From: Candidatus Sumerlaeaceae bacterium
GTDB taxonomy: Bacteria; Sumerlaeota; Sumerlaeia; Sumerlaeales; Sumerlaeaceae
Direction of reading: 5' to 3'
Assembly (NCBI GenBank): GCA_049968255.1
Contig: JBMFRB010000007.1
Span: 64,001 to 128,000 of the forward strand
Length of the DNA stretch: 64,000 nt
In this document: one piece after another, positions 1 to 6,529 of the stretch
How positions within the stretch are numbered: the first letter of the stretch is position 1
Layout of the letters: each line of letters opens with the position of its first letter
Translations under genes and position numbers: made by a program
Notes under the pieces: model-generated
What the model was told of the DNA's origin: nothing
Database searches by the model: none
The model's input: only the letters and a program-made list of their open reading frames with translations

Positions 1-188
1 AAATTATGGAGCTATTCGCTGAACTCAACGAGCAGGGCGTGACGCTCGTTATTGTGACGCACGAGCCGGACATTGCTGCGTGGTGCAAGAGAGTGATTCA
101 GATGCGGGATGGCAAAATTTTGGACGATCGCCCGATTGCCCCGCGGCGTCCCATGCTTGCGAAAGCGCAGCTAGAGCTTTCAAAATAA
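1..188 (+). CDS. ABC transporter ATP-binding protein, MacB/LolD type (3' end only, begins before the window)
   Basis: C-terminal H-loop VIVTHE followed by RVIQMRDGKI, typical of MacB/LolD ATPases. Confidence 0.85.
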   Translation, partial: IMELFAELNEQGVTLVIVTHEPDIAAWCKRVIQMRDGKILDDRPIAPRRPMLAKAQLELSK

Positions 189-255
189 CAATTTGACACA
201 TTTCGTAAGGTGCAATCCTTTGCGCTTACGCTTTGGCATGAAGAGGTCACCCAAG

Positions 256-1344
256 ATGGGCGTGATGAAGAAAAGTGCGGTTCGAAACAGCTCCGAGAAG
301 TTTCGCGACAGGCACTTCTTGCGCTTGTGGACGCTCATTTATTTGCTGAGTACGGCGACCTGTTCTTATTCTTACCATCAAATGCTCAAGGAGCTAGAAG
401 AGAGGGGCATTCCTTGCTGTCGTCGAACACTTTTGCGGGACCTGAGAGTTCTCCAAAGTGCTGGCTGGCCTCTCAAATGCACAACTCGACGCGACGGCTC
501 GAAGTGGTGGCGCCTCGAGCTGAAGAGCGGAATTCCCCTTCCCTTTCCGGCGGAAGCTAATGAAGTCTTGGCTCTGGCTGTTGCTCGAAATGCTCTGATG
601 CTTACGGATTTCGCCCAGCTGGTCAGATACCTCGACCAATTGTGGAACCGCGTGGGCCAGATCTACCCAGAGGGATACAGGCGCCTTTACGACGAGGTAT
701 CCGCTAACGTTGTGGTGCAAAAAGCGTCGATGCGCGAAAAGATGCAGGACATCGGGCACTACGATCAGCTTATGCGGGCAATTGAGGAGCGACGTAAGGT
801 CCAAATTACCTATCGCGACCATGAGGGACGCCTGTCGAAAGATCGGATTATTGCGCCACTAAAGCTTTTCATCGCATCGGGACACACGTATCTCCGTGCT
901 TTTTGCTACCTCCGCGGAGAAAAACGGAATTTCAGGCTATCGAGGCTGCAGGGGCAAGTGGTTATGCTGCGAGAACAGTTTTCGGAAGAATTGCTCCGAG
1001 GCATTGACAAAGAGCTGGACTATGCTCTGGGCGGGTTTCATGCAAAACCAGAGCTCGTTGTGCTGGCCGTGGATGATATGCTGGCTAGTTATTTGGAAGA
1101 AAATCCGCTCCACGTTTCGCAAAAGATCGTAAGAGACAAACGATTTATCAAAGTAGAACTATTCGTAGGATTGAATGAAACGCTTTTCCACAAACTCTTG
1201 GGTTTTGGCGAACACATCCGCGTGCTAGAGCCAGCGAAGCTGCGCTTGCTCCTTGCCGAGCGCCACAAAGGCGCATTTGAATCCTTCTGCGAGCCTGACG
1301 GCAACGGGCATCAGCCAGAATTACCTCTGCTGGTAGAAGAATAG
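256..1344 (+). CDS. WYL-domain transcriptional regulator (wHTH-WYL-WCX, PafB/PafC/DriD/BrxR-like)
   Basis: N-terminal HTH (RRTLLRDLRVLQSAGWPL), WYL core (AIEERRKVQITY...RIIAPLKL...TYLRAFCYLRGEKRNFRLSRL), WCX tail (LLGFGEHIRVLEPAKLR). ATG 256 has a GAGGT SD; alternative starts 193/238/265. Confidence 0.92.
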   Translation: MGVMKKSAVRNSSEKFRDRHFLRLWTLIYLLSTATCSYSYHQMLKELEERGIPCCRRTLLRDLRVLQSAGWPLKCTTRRDGSKWWRLELKSGIPLPFPAEANEVLALAVARNALMLTDFAQLVRYLDQLWNRVGQIYPEGYRRLYDEVSANVVVQKASMREKMQDIGHYDQLMRAIEERRKVQITYRDHEGRLSKDRIIAPLKLFIASGHTYLRAFCYLRGEKRNFRLSRLQGQVVMLREQFSEELLRGIDKELDYALGGFHAKPELVVLAVDDMLASYLEENPLHVSQKIVRDKRFIKVELFVGLNETLFHKLLGFGEHIRVLEPAKLRLLLAERHKGAFESFCEPDGNGHQPELPLLVEE

Positions 1345-1389
1345 GGCTACATCAGGCGCAACGAGGCTTGTCTCTTTTTTCACAACCTA

Positions 1390-1404
1390 TGACCACCCTT
1401 GTCA
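1390..1404. promoter_or_regulatory. Candidate WYL operator TGAC-N7-GTCA
   Basis: Perfect 4-bp inverted repeat with 7-nt spacer about 45 nt after the WYL stop; GAC-N7-GTC spacing matches the DriD-type WYL box as I recall it. Confidence 0.5.
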
Positions 1405-1581
1405 CCCCTGCTTCGTACTTAACAGCGGAACGGCACGAGGGCTGCGGGTTCGCCGTGGGCAGGGGGGAACAACAAGGAGCCACGGCTGAGCTCAGGGGGT
1501 AGACGGCGCCTCGTGCCTTCCAAAACTCAAGGGGCTTGTGGAGGGTGGAAGAGGAAACCCCTAGAGACGAAGGCAGGGGGG
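1405..1581 (+). ncRNA. Putative structured non-coding RNA of unknown family
   Basis: Nested helices: 1405-1416/1567-1579, 1427-1440/1509-1521 (bulged C1431), 1441-1444/1504-1507, 1446-1458/1480-1493. G-U pairs favour the + strand; a terminator follows directly. Confidence 0.55.
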
Positions 1582-1583
1582 CT

Positions 1584-1630
1584 GCGGATCGAGAGGATAA
1601 GGCATCTTCTCTCGATCCGCTTTTTTGTTT
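1584..1630 (+). terminator. Rho-independent terminator
   Basis: GCGGATCGAGAG...CTCTCGATCCGC stem followed by TTTTTTGTTT. Confidence 0.85.
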
Positions 1631-1802
1631 AGGAGCTAAGGAGTACATTTTCTTTGCGGTCAGCCTGGATATCGACGTTCGCTGTCTATTCTGGCCGCAG
1701 CAGCTCTTTTCCTTCCCCCTCAATCTCGATTGTTATTTCGAATGTCATAATGTTATTATTATTTCTCCATTCTGTGGCAATCCGCACAACCGTGCCTCGG
1801 AG
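1629..1802 (-). pseudogene. Decayed fragment of a MacA/HlyD-type efflux periplasmic adaptor
   Basis: Minus strand reads LRGTVVRIATEWRNNNNIMTFEITIEIEGEGKELLRPE*TANVDIQADRKENVLL, resembling the adaptor beta-barrel motif (LRPGMTANVxI...NVLLVP), with an in-frame TAG at 1686-1688. Confidence 0.65.
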
Positions 1803-2147
1803 ATGGCGCACCAGAATTTAGTATGTTGTGTCCTTACTGCCGATATTGCGCTCTGGTTCTGTGGACGTTGCTTAGGTATGTGGCATGTAAGGAGCGCGAA
1901 AAACATATGGCCCAGTGCAGGATTCGAGCTTTGAGTCGAAACGTCTCCTACTCGCGTGATTTGGCTACCCGAGATAGGTCTTTTTCCGGTTTCACGGTAT
2001 TCTCGTTTTCCAAGGCGGTAGGACTTGCGTGTCAGGCAAGAGCTTGGCAATGAAACCACGACGTGTGTGCCAAGTGTTGCTGCGCCAGCGGGCCGGAGCG
2101 TGGTTTTTCCTTTACCGCGCGTGGCCACAAGTCCGAGATACGGGAAT

Positions 2148-3272
2148 ATGCGTGTGGCCCTAGTGCACGACTGGCTCAATGGAATGCGGGGCGGTGAAAA
2201 GGTTTTTGAGGTGCTTTGCGAACTGTTCCCGCAGGCCGACGTCTATACTTTGTTCTATGAGCCACGGAAGGTTTCCCCTCTCATTCGCACGATGAAAGTG
2301 CATGAGTGGTGGGCCGCACGGTGGATTCCCTTCGCCCGGCGCTCCTATCGTTGGTTTTTGCCAGTGCTGCCCAGTGCGGTGGAACATTTCCCTATTCGCA
2401 ACTATGATCTGGTGATCTCTACTTCGCATTGCGTAGCGAAGGGGATTCGGCCTGAGCCCAAGACCACGTTGCATATCTCGTATTGCTTCACGCCGATGCG
2501 ATATTTGTGGGACAAATTTGACGATTATTTTGGCGATTTGTACCATCCAGCATCGCTGGCTATGCTGGCGATGCGCGCCTGGCTTCAGCAGTGGGATGTG
2601 AAATCGTCATCGCGTGTGACGCATTTCTTAGCACCTTCGGAATACGTGCGGGAACGGATCCGACGAATTTATCAGCGTGAGGCAATTGTTTTACCGCCAC
2701 CGGTGGATTGGAACAGATATTCGATGATCGAACGCCTGCCGTCGGAGTTCTTCCTTGTCGTGTCTGCGCTTGAACCCTATAAGCGGGTGGACGTAGCGGT
2801 GGAAGCCTGCAACCGGCTGCGCGTACCTTTGAAAGTTGTGGGCACTGGCACGCAACTTAGACGGTTGCGTCGGCTTGCAGGGCCGACGGTCGAATTTCTT
2901 GGCTGGGTAAGCGATTCGCAACTAGCAGCTCTGTATTCGTGTGCGCGGGCAGTTCTGTTTCCGGCGGATGAGGATTTTGGAATTGTGCCTCTGGAGGCGA
3001 TGGCATCAGGGTGTCCGGTCATCGCCTATCGCAAAGGTGGTGCACTTGAGACTGTGGTGGAAGGTCACACGGGGATTTTCTTTGATCAGCAGACGCCAGA
3101 GTCGTTGTGCGCGGCGATCGAAAAGTTCGAGGACATGAACTTTGATGAGGATTTTGGGCGACGTCATGCGCAGCGTTTTTCACGGGACATTTTCAAGGAA
3201 CGGCTGAAAGAGACGATTATTAAACTTGCTGGTTTGTCGTCTGGAACGATGCGGGCTGTACAATTGCCTTGA
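2148..3272 (+). CDS. Glycosyltransferase family 4 (GT-B)
   Basis: MRVALVHDWLNGMRGGEKV N-terminus; EDFGIVPLEAMASG signature. Confidence 0.92.
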   Translation: MRVALVHDWLNGMRGGEKVFEVLCELFPQADVYTLFYEPRKVSPLIRTMKVHEWWAARWIPFARRSYRWFLPVLPSAVEHFPIRNYDLVISTSHCVAKGIRPEPKTTLHISYCFTPMRYLWDKFDDYFGDLYHPASLAMLAMRAWLQQWDVKSSSRVTHFLAPSEYVRERIRRIYQREAIVLPPPVDWNRYSMIERLPSEFFLVVSALEPYKRVDVAVEACNRLRVPLKVVGTGTQLRRLRRLAGPTVEFLGWVSDSQLAALYSCARAVLFPADEDFGIVPLEAMASGCPVIAYRKGGALETVVEGHTGIFFDQQTPESLCAAIEKFEDMNFDEDFGRRHAQRFSRDIFKERLKETIIKLAGLSSGTMRAVQLP

Positions 3273-3351
3273 GATGCTTGAAGCTTTCGTGCTTGCACCT
3301 CGTTGCCGCTCTGTTAGAAGTTATTTAGCCTGATTTGGGAGTGTGTGACGG

Positions 3352-4653
3352 ATGACGGTCGTGGCAATGCTTTTGGCGGGCGGACAAGGGTCGCGTCTGT
3401 CAATTCTTTCGCAGCACCGTGCGAAACCGGCAGTGCCATTTGGCGGAAGTTACCGAATCATTGATTTCACCCTCAGCAATGTTATGCATGCGGAAATTCC
3501 CTATATTGGCATTCTCACCCAATATAAGCCTTACTCGCTGATGGAGCATTTTGGCAATGGCGAGTGGTGGGGATTCGCCGGCCGAGGACGTGTGGGACGC
3601 ATTCTTCCCCCCGCCACAGGTGAGGAAGACAGCGACTGGTACGCGGGCACAGCTGATGCGGTGTGGCAGAACCGCAATTTTCTGGCGCGCTTCAGCCCCG
3701 AGTTGGTCCTCGTGTTATCGGGTGATCATATCTACCAGATGGATTACGCCGATCTGATCGCATTTCACCGTGAACGAAAAGCCGAGCTGACTATCGCCAT
3801 GCAGCGGGTCCCGTGGGAGGATACATCGCGGTTTGGTGTGGCGTTGACGGATGAGCGGGGTCGGATAGTGCAATTTCAAGAAAAACCTAAGAGCAATCCC
3901 ATAAGTAATCTCGCTTCTTTGGGCATTTATGTCTTCGACACGGACGTCCTGCTTCGGCGGTTGGCCGAAGACGCAGAAAACAATCAGAGCAAGCACGATT
4001 TCGGCATGAACGTGATCCCAAGTATGCTCGACCGCGATAGAGTTTACGCGTACGAGTTTTCAGGTTATTGGCGCGATGTGGGGACGATCCAATCGTATTG
4101 GGATGCCAATATGGAGTCGCTGGATCCGAGATCGGGCTTAGATCTGGTGGAGTGGCGGGTCCGCACAAATTATTACGATCCCCGGCCGCAAAATGAGCTT
4201 CCGGCTCGGATCGGTCCGCAGGCGCGTATATCGAATAGCTATGTGCCGCGTGGCTGTGTGGTGGAAGGAGTTGTGGAACACTCGATTCTATTCCCAGGGG
4301 TGCATGTGGAGCGCGACGCTGTTGTGCGCGATTCGATCGTGATGAACAACTCGTACATTGCACAGGGTTGCGCGATCGAGCGGGCGATTCTCGATAAGAA
4401 CGTCCGTGTGGAACAATGCTGCCGGATTGGCACAAGTGAAACCAGTATCCCGAACAAGGATTTCCCCCATTTACTCGATTCGGGACTCGTGGTCGTGGGA
4501 AAAAATTCGCATCTGCCCGCTGGCATGGAAATAGGGAAGAACGTGCTGATTTGTCCGGATGTTGAACCGCAAGATTTCACCAGTGGGAAACTGGACTCAG
4601 GAATGACGGTTTACCCTTCGAAAAAACAGCACCGAGGAGCGTTGACTGGGTGA
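3352..4653 (+). CDS. glgC: Glucose-1-phosphate adenylyltransferase
   Basis: LAGGQGSRL, RAKPAVPFGGSYRIIDF, WYAGTADAV, LSGDHIY, FQEKP, YWRDVGT motifs; C-terminal beta-helix. Confidence 0.95.
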   Translation: MTVVAMLLAGGQGSRLSILSQHRAKPAVPFGGSYRIIDFTLSNVMHAEIPYIGILTQYKPYSLMEHFGNGEWWGFAGRGRVGRILPPATGEEDSDWYAGTADAVWQNRNFLARFSPELVLVLSGDHIYQMDYADLIAFHRERKAELTIAMQRVPWEDTSRFGVALTDERGRIVQFQEKPKSNPISNLASLGIYVFDTDVLLRRLAEDAENNQSKHDFGMNVIPSMLDRDRVYAYEFSGYWRDVGTIQSYWDANMESLDPRSGLDLVEWRVRTNYYDPRPQNELPARIGPQARISNSYVPRGCVVEGVVEHSILFPGVHVERDAVVRDSIVMNNSYIAQGCAIERAILDKNVRVEQCCRIGTSETSIPNKDFPHLLDSGLVVVGKNSHLPAGMEIGKNVLICPDVEPQDFTSGKLDSGMTVYPSKKQHRGALTG

Positions 4654-5657
4654 GCACAAGATTGTTGTTAGTGTGGTTACTGGGGGCGATTCTGATGAGT
4701 TTTTCGTCGGGGGTGCTCGCCGAGGTTGTGCAAAAGGGGCCACTGGCAGGAAAGAATGTTCTGCCGGTGGGCCACGCGGACGTGACAGTGGCGGAAAGCC
4801 CCATGGCCGCCATGATGGTCATAAAGCATGCTCCTGCGAACTATGATAAGCTTGCTCGTTTCGACGCAGCGCTGCAGACAACGATGACGGCTGGTATTCC
4901 TGCGTTTGCGCTGGTTGAGCTCGATAATGAAGATCAGCTCGATGTTGTGGAGGAAATCGTAGGACAAAGGGGCATCCGATTGCCAGTCTTTGGCACAACG
5001 GAGGACTTGCTCGGCGAAAACGAGGCGAAACTTTACATTTTGGTCGATGGACGTGCTTTGCTGGTCGAGGGGCTGGACTTCGAGAAACTGCTCTCTGAAC
5101 TTACCAGCCGCCGTCAGTCGGCCACGGAGTCCGGGCGAAGCGACGCTGCGACTTCGGCCCCTGCGTTGCTGCCAGCGAAAAATCCACTGTACGTGAATCA
5201 GCGCTACGAGTTCTCAGTGCGCTGGCCGCCAGGGTGGAACTATCGCGTGGCACGCAATAACGACGGTGCGGTGGGCGTGGCTCCCCCCGGGAGTGGGCTC
5301 GAAGCGCGAGTTTGGGCCGCGCCCGAGATCAAAAGTAATGACCCGAGTGACCCGCCCGCTTACGTGCAGATCAAGGACTACCTGAACTTTCTCAAAACAC
5401 AGGCTCGGGGAGAGATCCGCGTGGAGAGTAAACTCAAAGTATTCGATGGAGACATTGAAGGGCGAGATTACACTTACTCCTACGAGCGTGCAGGAAATGG
5501 CGTAAAGCCGGATCAGAAGTATCGAGGACGGATTCAGGCGTTTGTTGTGGACGGAGTTGCAAAGCTCATCTGCGTGGAAGGACCCGAAGAAGAGTTTCGC
5601 CGAGAGGAAAACACTGTAGACAAATTTATTTACTCATTCCACCCGAGCATTGACTGA
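4650..5657 (+). CDS. Exported hypothetical protein, possible PsbP/Mog1-like C-terminal domain
   Basis: Signal peptide ending VLA; YVNQRYEFSVRWPPGW resembles the start of a PsbP-like domain; start overlaps the glgC stop. Confidence 0.7.
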   Translation: MSTRLLLVWLLGAILMSFSSGVLAEVVQKGPLAGKNVLPVGHADVTVAESPMAAMMVIKHAPANYDKLARFDAALQTTMTAGIPAFALVELDNEDQLDVVEEIVGQRGIRLPVFGTTEDLLGENEAKLYILVDGRALLVEGLDFEKLLSELTSRRQSATESGRSDAATSAPALLPAKNPLYVNQRYEFSVRWPPGWNYRVARNNDGAVGVAPPGSGLEARVWAAPEIKSNDPSDPPAYVQIKDYLNFLKTQARGEIRVESKLKVFDGDIEGRDYTYSYERAGNGVKPDQKYRGRIQAFVVDGVAKLICVEGPEEEFRREENTVDKFIYSFHPSID

Positions 5658-5716
5658 GCTGAACCTTCGCCTGGCGGCCACGAGGGCTAAAGAGAAGAAG
5701 AGGGTTCTCTCTGGTT

Positions 5717-6529
5717 TCAGTAGTTCAGGTCGCGGCGGAGAAAAAGCCAGAAACTCACAGCAAGGAACGCAACGAGCGCAATTAGACTTGTTGAAAACAT
5801 GTAAAGGGTGCGCTCTTGAAACCAGGCCTCGTACATTCCGCCGATTTTAGCGTCGGCTATTTTTAGAGGAAGATCGTAATAGGTGCTAAAAATAAACTGA
5901 CTGAGCTCGTAGCCGGCGATGCTAATAAATTGTTTCGCGGCGGTGACTGTGAGATAGAGGCCAAGTGCTATACCGACGGCGGTTCCGCCTGAGGTGACGA
6001 GCACACTGATCATGAAACCAAATGCCACGGTAGCAAGCTGAGGGATCAATGCCAAAGCAAGCCCCGTCAGGCAGACCACAAATTGCGTGGCCAGCGGTGG
6101 AACATCCAGCGACGAGTCGATGGCTTCGTTCAGGGGATATTTCTGAGCTACCATTGCCGCGATAAGGGCGTTGGCCACCTCGAGAAGCACGAGATACAGC
6201 ACTGCGGATAATAACTTGGCGATGAGAAATTGCGAGCGGGTGACAGGGCGAACCAAAATGGTGCGCAGAGTGCCTCGCGATGTTTCGGGAGCAACCGTCA
6301 TCGCCGCGAAGATCGTCGCGAAGATCGGCGTGGTGAGGGTGGAAGACAGGATCAAAGAACTTATGAAATAGTTGAACGCCGTGACCTGACCAGGCGTGGC
6401 GAAGCTTTCGACACTCTGCTTCGCGACAAACGCCATGAGAGCACTGCATGCGAGCCCGATGTATGGCAATTTTGTGCGCCATACCTTCGCCATTTCGGAA
6501 ACAAAAAGTCGCCGTACCTCGGAGAGCAT
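5717..6529 (-). CDS. ABC-2 type transporter permease
   Basis: About 6 TM segments; ETSRGTLRTILVRPVTRSQFLIAK motif; C-terminal FLRRDL. Confidence 0.88.
   Translation of the reverse strand: MLSEVRRLFVSEMAKVWRTKLPYIGLACSALMAFVAKQSVESFATPGQVTAFNYFISSLILSSTLTTPIFATIFAAMTVAPETSRGTLRTILVRPVTRSQFLIAKLLSAVLYLVLLEVANALIAAMVAQKYPLNEAIDSSLDVPPLATQFVVCLTGLALALIPQLATVAFGFMISVLVTSGGTAVGIALGLYLTVTAAKQFISIAGYELSQFIFSTYYDLPLKIADAKIGGMYEAWFQERTLYMFSTSLIALVAFLAVSFWLFLRRDLNY

Follow-up and report, generated by a model that had tools for sequence, protein, structure and literature searches.

The window analysed here is a stretch of 64,000 nucleotides (nt) from a Candidatus Sumerlaeaceae bacterium (assembly GCA_049968255.1, contig JBMFRB010000007.1, positions 64,001 to 128,000). 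Near its start lies a gene for a WYL-domain transcription factor, followed on the same strand by a palindrome, a segment without a credible open reading frame (ORF) and a strong intrinsic terminator. A sequence-only reading had described this arrangement as a regulator with an operator, a structured RNA and a terminator, lacking a protein effector. After comparison with related genomes we consider it reasonably probable that the regulator of this locus is a DriD-like activator and that a small RNA is its dedicated and probably ancestral target. The genome holding the window (G000; 3.1 Mb; 95.75% complete) was counted among the 13 genomes of the family comparison set, and two metagenome contigs with a WYL orthologue (L082 and L084; L081 has the same sequence as L084 there) were included. 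The features are listed in Table 1.

The regulator comprises 383 amino acids (aa) when read from the TTG start codon, and the first in-frame ATG is found at position 238. Pfam identified a WYL domain (PF13280, 2.2e-16) followed by a WCX domain (PF25583, 2.6e-8), which agrees with the full-length WYL gene claimed before. The best sequence match in the PDB was PafBC (6sj9, E 5.4e-9). The AlphaFold2 (AF2) model had a predicted local distance difference test (pLDDT) value of 71 (helices 47-75, strands 80-94), and its top Foldseek matches were DriD (8tp8, 5e-15) and PafBC (9fnd, 1e-14), with at least 330 alignment columns. BrxR and CapW ranked behind these two with E values of about 1e-8. The global template modelling (TM) score against DriD and PafBC was only about 0.3, which is expected for flexible multi-domain chains. 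The PADLOC model of a CRISPR-associated 'WYL' protein was also matched (1.1e-30). The gene is the sole clear WYL gene of G000, which also possesses a LexA gene. Orthologues are present in 10 of the 13 family genomes and were not found in any of 62 other genomes of the phylum (E<=1e-30). A WYL profile built from a 4-row alignment found 2 loci in genome contigs and none in metagenome contigs. The metagenome contigs were also scanned with the protein of the glycosyltransferase (GT) gene downstream, which gave 53 loci. The best 9 of them (L081-L089) were examined for a WYL gene and the operator, and a WYL gene was present on 3 of these. The weak hairpin and T-rich run just behind the regulator gene may be its terminator or insulator; they are not kept in the same-genus relative G002.

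The palindrome TGAC-N7-GTCA noticed earlier at 1390-1404 can be read directly in the sequence, with the half TGAC at 1390-1393, seven intervening nucleotides and GTCA at 1401-1404. In this bare form it occurs 35 times in the 3.1-Mb genome against about 45 copies expected from composition. It is thus no rarer than chance, and its significance rests solely on the comparison with relatives. There, an asymmetric form, (G)TGAC(C)-N5-TGTCAC, adjoins the WYL orthologue in 9 of 10 genomes (the exception is G003), either downstream of the gene or in the divergent upstream gap, and it is also located beside the orthologue on L082 and L084. In 10 of the 12 WYL-linked sites, a hexamer beginning with TA follows exactly 10 nt past the 3' half-site, and in the window this hexamer starts exactly 10 nt after TGTCAC. 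The full pattern TGACM-N5-TGTCAC-N10-TA matched 13 times in the 13 family genomes, compared to one match for the reversed control. All 13 matches belong to genomes bearing the orthologue, and none was found in the 3 genomes without it. With a position matrix of the sites, which includes the G000 site itself, the site before the RNA scored 33.4 and the next best site of G000 19.5; apart from the RNA promoter, no site of this genome matches the pattern in full.

The operator occupies the place of a -35 element. These comparisons place the palindrome in a DriD-type activator promoter, in which a -10-like hexamer follows at a fixed spacing of 10 nt. The operator proposed by the sequence-only reading is therefore conserved and tied to the regulator, but it is not a simple operator. 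Its palindromic form fits a homodimer, and the WYL protein would bind here and activate transcription. The grammar TGACC-N5-TGTCAC-N10-TA appears to be a clean promoter rule for this regulator clade. Within the window, no operator site was found 5' of the regulator's own gene. Two other intergenic sites of G000 (C5:6700-6725 and C12:28758-28783) share CACAACCYATGAC..GTCAC and the upstream flank with the window operator and lack a TA at the canonical spacing. One of them is located between a divergent gene and a pyrH-like gene, the other about 300 nt before an acetyltransferase-like gene (gene names assigned by eye).

Table 1. Features of the locus in the window, and protein genes driven by the same type of promoter in sister genera (positions refer to the window unless a locus is named).
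Feature	Position	Strand	Details
WYL-domain transcription factor gene, DriD/PafBC architecture (winged helix-turn-helix, helical linker, WYL, WCX)	193..1344	+	ORF, Pfam, PDB, AF2/Foldseek; starts at TTG 193
Weak hairpin and T-rich run just 3' of the WYL stop codon	1353..1380	+	Terminator-like site 1353-1370, then TCTCTTTTTT
Operator TGACC-N5-TGTCAC, containing TGAC-N7-GTCA	1390..1405	+	Sequence and conservation; predicted binding site of a WYL dimer
-10-like hexamer TACTTA	1416..1421	+	Starts exactly 10 nt after TGTCAC
Predicted non-coding transcript, about 199 nt	1428..1626	+	Start inferred from the -10 hexamer; end at the T-run of the terminator
Predicted long 5' hairpin	1427..1521	+	GGAACGGCACGAGG (1427-1440) pairs with CCTCGTGCCTTCC (1509-1521); minimum-free-energy folds
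Block M2, GGAAGAGGAAA	1547..1557	+	Purine-only, predicted mostly unpaired; related blocks in other copies
Block M3, GGCAGGGGGG	1572..1581	+	2 nt before the terminator stem; best conserved RNA element
Intrinsic terminator	1584..1626	+	14-bp stem, 9-nt loop (stem-loop 1584-1620), T6 (1621-1626); -24.3 kcal/mol
Cas3_C-like proteins	L025:2589-3419 (G011); L028:212-1150 (G010); L029:518-1342 (G012)
Cargo proteins without family match	L024:562-1329 (G004); L027:2623-3504 (G007)

A start about 7 nt past the -10 element is the typical spacing and was used to place the 5' end of the predicted RNA. Purines make up 65% and G 41% of its first 150 nt, values within the top 0.3% and the top 0.2%, respectively, of the 150-nt windows of G000. 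The ORFs around 1405-1583 are short or implausible (1368..1502, 44 aa; 1513..1632, 39 aa; 1536..1934, 132 aa, reading through the terminator; and antisense 1352..1723, 123 aa), and Pfam showed no match for the two longest. No ORF is common to the five RNA copies from species genomes, and this upholds the earlier statement that the segment has no credible ORF. The strong terminator seen before was recovered as well. With its loop of 9 nt, the stem-loop escaped our consensus terminator scan, which accepts only loops of 3-8 nt. Read on the minus strand, the hairpin has no T-run behind it.

For the nested hairpins described before the picture is mixed. The segment 1380-1632 folds with -107.2 kcal/mol (z = -3.27, 0 of 200 shuffles as good), to which the terminator contributes much. 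The RNA body alone (158 nt) reaches z = -1.6, with 21 of 300 shuffles as good, and is thus only partly above composition. Among the five copies tested, the body of G002 alone reaches z = -3.7. As far as the sequences tell, the RNA body is G/purine-rich with conserved sequence blocks and is not a conserved nest of hairpins. The apical loop of the predicted 5' hairpin is purine-rich and forms block M1, GGGCAGGGGGGAACAACAAGGAGCC (1457-1481). In the equivalent hairpin of G002 the sequence of the apical stem differs, and the loop contains a similar CAGGGG..GAAAAG (two sequences compared by eye).

Searches against Rfam gave no relevant match. For positions 1-6000 of the window at E<=1 only a chance match of 21.6 bits at 150-234 appeared, the whole window at the gathering score contains one tRNA only, and the loci of the copies in G001, G002 and G006 gave nothing at E<=0.1. 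The housekeeping 6S RNA (RF00013) was ruled out, as the 6S RNA of G000 is located on another contig (C2:256854-257036, 62.1 bits).

The promoter, followed by about 90-210 nt without a common ORF and then by a strong terminator, recurs behind WYL orthologues in six organisms, which supports the module view of the locus. These are G000, G001, G002, G006, L082 and L084, with seven copies in total, since G001 carries two complete tandem units (G001a and G001b), each with its own operator and terminator. The copies G001a, G001b and L084 have no ORF of at least 12 codons, and L082 has only one of 13 codons. BLASTN of 1345-1640 against 40 relatives found no homologue (best non-self E 0.002 over 21 nt), and a profile search with nhmmer found no second RNA copy in G000. 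Homology of the RNA copies was recognised by position and motifs only. Three motifs are shared. M1 has the common form CAGGGG..GAAAAG in the loop. M2 has the common form GGRAGAGGAAA and reads GGAAGAGGAAA in G002, GGGGAGAGGAAAA in G001a, GGGGAGGAGAAAA in G001b, GGGAGAGGGGA in G006, GGGAGGAGG in L082 and GUGAGGGGAAA in L084. M3, with the common form GGCAGGGG, precedes the terminator stem by no more than about 6 nt in all copies but G001b (6 of 7). When the whole family was scanned for M3 with a T-run behind it, a strong hairpin directly followed the motif at WYL-linked loci only; three look-alikes of GGCAGGGG plus hairpin in G003 and G007 turned out to be coding sequence or the terminator of another gene. 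The terminators of the five folded copies have -24 to -26 kcal/mol and unrelated stem sequences, and the units of L082 and L084 also fold into a terminator hairpin. Comparison with the relatives shows the class of the regulator, the conservation of the operator, the geometry of the promoter, the non-coding nature of the RNA and the linkage between them.

In sister genera the same promoter drives protein genes. In G010, G011 and G012 the product is a protein of 275-313 aa with weak similarity to Cas3_C (best 3.6e-6), and in G004 and G007 a protein of 256-294 aa without family match. In these five loci the ATG is located about 30-45 nt past the hexamer, and a GGAGG-type ribosome-binding site precedes it in four of the five (none was seen in G007). 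This placement fits a transcription start just downstream of the hexamer. Extra promoter copies in G004 drive genes for a DEAD-box helicase, a radical S-adenosylmethionine (SAM) protein and an extracytoplasmic function (ECF) sigma factor. G006, which bears the RNA, has a second promoter copy (L054; G006:C1:2674936-2674963 and downstream) that drives a Cas3 gene (Cas3_HD and DEAD helicase), so its regulator would control a CRISPR nuclease and an RNA in one genome. The lack of a protein effector claimed by the sequence-only reading therefore holds for G000, with the RNA promoter as the sole full match, but not for the sister genera or for G006. The comparison shows that RNA, Cas3-related proteins, helicase and radical SAM protein were exchanged as cargo behind one conserved promoter. 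Single-protein queries with the cargo proteins of G012 and G007 found no homologue in G000. A k-mer script detected no CRISPR array in the G000 assembly and no Cas3_C gene was found; such arrays often fail to assemble.

A tree of 12 WYL proteins (midpoint root) places RNA-bearing loci in both deep branches, between which the proteins share 34-41% identity, and the loci with protein cargo form a derived group. The RNA is thus probably the older cargo, and on this tree it would probably be the ancestral partner of the regulator.

Taken together, we propose that the locus is a two-gene regulatory unit of a WYL activator and a small RNA. The first gene would encode a homodimer-type activator built like DriD of Caulobacter, and the palindrome would be its operator, held in the -35 place at a fixed distance from the -10-like hexamer. 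With this placement RNA polymerase should depend on binding of the activated regulator to start there. If DriD and PafBC are taken as models, activation would occur when single-stranded DNA (ssDNA) from damage or infection binds to the WYL domain. The product of the promoter would then be a G/purine-rich non-coding RNA, about 200 nt long, with its 3' end at the strong intrinsic terminator. Most likely this is a trans-acting regulatory RNA that probably works with Hfq, and the conserved unpaired purine blocks GGAAGAGGAAA and GGCAGGGGGG may be its contact surface. An Hfq gene is present in G000 (PF17209, 6.8e-21, C2:321271-321459). CsrA (PF02599) was not found in this genome, and a sponge of the CsrB/RsmZ type was rejected for want of this partner.

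Several observations weigh against this interpretation. Pairing of the RNA was no better than in shuffled controls with a conserved CU-rich RNA (fraction as good 0.25-0.57), with the GT leader (0.18-0.87) or with the TTTTYCTTTAC motif found before the GT gene (0.14-0.94), and a scan of G000 for the complement of M3 gave 23 sites without a pattern. Most known small RNAs pair with ribosome-binding sites, which is not possible for a G/purine-rich RNA. In four of the five copies tested the fold of the body is no better than composition (z -0.1 to -1.6). MAFFT alignments of the RNA copies were poor and structurally incoherent, and RNAalifold on G000 and G002 followed a misaligned stem. Six organisms provide too few copies for covariation statistics. 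Both sites of G001 deviate in one half-site (TGTCGG) and lack a TA at the usual distance. Finally, the GT gene always follows the RNA in the same direction in all six organisms, and on L084 the distance from the terminator to its start codon is about 35 nt, so that read-through could control the GT gene there.

The main rival to a trans-acting small RNA is a role in binding a protein or sensor, as a sponge, decoy or feedback ligand, perhaps of the Sm-like WYL domain of its own regulator. Such a role would account for a GGCAGGGG-type block that is present twice in most copies, in a loop and before the terminator, and it sits well with the close adjacency of regulator and RNA across deep divergence and with the three pairing tests, none of which pointed to a target for base pairing. 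The fold of WYL domains is Sm-like, and these domains bind nucleic acid in single-stranded form (PMC6789036, PMC11804915). We nevertheless judge it unlikely, because the classic GGA sponge model is left without CsrA in G000, and the ligands shown for DriD and PafBC are ssDNA and not RNA. A more specific version is a closed nucleic-acid-sensing pair, in which the RNA, or the displaced G-rich non-template strand, would be the ligand of the Sm-like WYL domain, and making the RNA would amplify or switch off the activity of the regulator. In sister lineages, such an ancient two-part switch could later have accommodated protein effectors (Cas3, Cas3_C-like proteins, helicases); we regard this as rather speculative and quite improbable. 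The stretch could also be a functionless remnant, an orphan WYL promoter left after the loss of a protein cargo, with the terminator merely insulating the next gene. Protein genes under the same promoter in sister genera, a similarity between the copies too low for BLASTN and a body structure mostly not above composition would suit a remnant. Yet M2, M3 and the extreme purine bias have been retained in lineages with WYL proteins of 34-41% identity, the whole unit was duplicated in G001, the basal position of the RNA loci in the WYL tree (midpoint root) suggests that the RNA is the older cargo, and neither of the two cargo proteins tested (from G012 and G007) has a homologue that was found in G000. 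A decayed locus is therefore a doubtful explanation, to which we give little credence. That the region encodes a small protein is scarcely credible: short ORFs occur (15-39 codons in G000, 34 in G002, 17 in G006), but their peptides are unrelated, three copies (G001a, G001b and L084) have no ORF of at least 12 codons, and no suitably spaced ribosome-binding site was seen by eye in the upstream sequences.

The position of the GT gene suggests another explanation, namely a cis-acting leader or attenuator, in which the WYL promoter would transcribe towards the GT-glgC genes and the terminator would gate read-through. Its strength is the same GT gene in the same orientation in six organisms, with a gap of about 35-100 nt between terminator and GT gene in five of them. 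In the window, by contrast, this gap extends over 521 nt (1627-2147). The GT orthologues of G004, G007 and L083 have no such RNA element upstream and those of G003 and G005 have a different one; the element thus does not travel with the GT gene as a riboswitch or attenuator would. Two complete tandem units, each with operator and terminator, as in G001, and the strong terminators of -24 to -26 kcal/mol are also hard to reconcile with a leader. Moreover, a TTTTYCTTTAC motif, which may be a promoter or leader element, is located at 2103-2115 in the window and 31-33 nt before the GT start in G001, G002, G006, G007, L082 and L084, whether the RNA is present or not. This independence from the RNA suggests a separate control of the GT gene. 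A leader role is thus less likely than the binding role discussed above, and we consider it improbable. The trans-acting small RNA under control of a DriD-like activator remains our preferred reading.

On L084 the TTTTYCTTTAC motif coincides with the T-run of the RNA terminator. About 520 nt lie between terminator and GT gene in the window (1630-2147). Part of this segment is AT-rich and contains a sigma-70-like site (1730-1759), and the ORFs of the segment (76-144 aa) gave no Pfam match. The element just 5' of the GT gene in G003 and G005 is a second, much better conserved small-RNA-like element, which in G000 lies outside the window (C4:197931-198005, minus strand; loci L066-L077). It has an invariant AACCUCCUAACCUCAAGAUUAG between two hairpins that show compensatory changes, and a terminator is located at the end. 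It was found in 12 of the 13 family genomes, G000 counted, and in none of 28 other genomes of the class, and the two loci scanned gave no Rfam match.

The WYL regulators PafBC, DriD, BrxR and CapW are known as switches of protein-coding genes for DNA damage or phage defence. If the proposed reading is true, the dedicated and probably oldest output of a DriD-like sensor in a candidate phylum is a non-coding RNA, and a post-transcriptional arm would be added to WYL signalling. The extreme G/purine bias of the RNA in the window is unusual for a bacterial regulatory RNA. Promoter grammar and cargo exchange could help in reading other WYL loci. Small RNAs adjacent to their regulators are a known kind, whereas the link to a WYL factor and the G-rich RNA family appear new; no WYL-dependent small RNA was found in the literature searched, whose scope left out most subscription journals.

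In OxyR-OxyS, SgrR-SgrS and GcvA-GcvB, a transcription factor gene likewise lies beside the small RNA gene that it activates, and the RNA has its own promoter and an intrinsic terminator. At the present locus the regulator belongs to the WYL family, the genes are arranged in tandem instead of divergently, and the RNA is G/purine-rich and not C/U-rich. BrxR and CapW, which function in phage defence, repress protein operons next to their genes. The regulator described here has the WYL fold in common with them (Foldseek about 1e-8), and further points of resemblance are the PADLOC match and the Cas3 and Cas3_C-like genes under the same promoter in relatives. The position of the site fits activation in our case, and the cargo of G000 is an RNA.

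A small RNA linked to the DNA-damage response is the 6C RNA, which rises about two-fold on mitomycin C in Corynebacterium (PMC6789036). It differs by its C-rich loops, is not known to depend on a WYL factor and has no relation in sequence or Rfam to the RNA of the window. According to the same 2019 paper on PafBC, no small RNA of mycobacteria had been tied to the damage response (PMC6789036). PafBC itself, which acts at the RecA-NDp / -26 promoter of mycobacteria, has WYL and WCX domains as our regulator does and is its best sequence match in the PDB. Its element replaces the -35 next to a normal -10, termed 'sigma adaptation' (PMC11804915), and an activator-specific element in this place is found here as well. 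PafBC is a heterodimer or fusion with a non-palindromic motif, in contrast to the palindromic site at this locus, and it does not bind DNA without RNA polymerase.

Another close relation is to DriD of Caulobacter crescentus, with its promoters didA, bapE, recJ and dnaG. It has the same full-length domain order and was the best fold match. The DriD dimer binds ATACGAC(X)7GTCGTAT (PMC10853764), and its core CGAC-N7-GTCG has the same palindrome geometry as the xGAC-N7-GTCx observed here. DriD promoters have no -35, and the spacing between their site and the -10 is fixed (PMC13004042), which corresponds to the site in the -35 place without recognisable -35 element in the window. The regulon in sister genomes also includes DNA-metabolism genes (helicase, radical SAM, Cas3). 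In contrast to DriD, the half-site is TGAC and not CGAC, the regulator derives from another phylum with about 20% sequence identity, and no site precedes its own gene in the window. A further difference is the target: in G000, the adjacent and only full-match target of the DriD-like regulator is a non-coding RNA.

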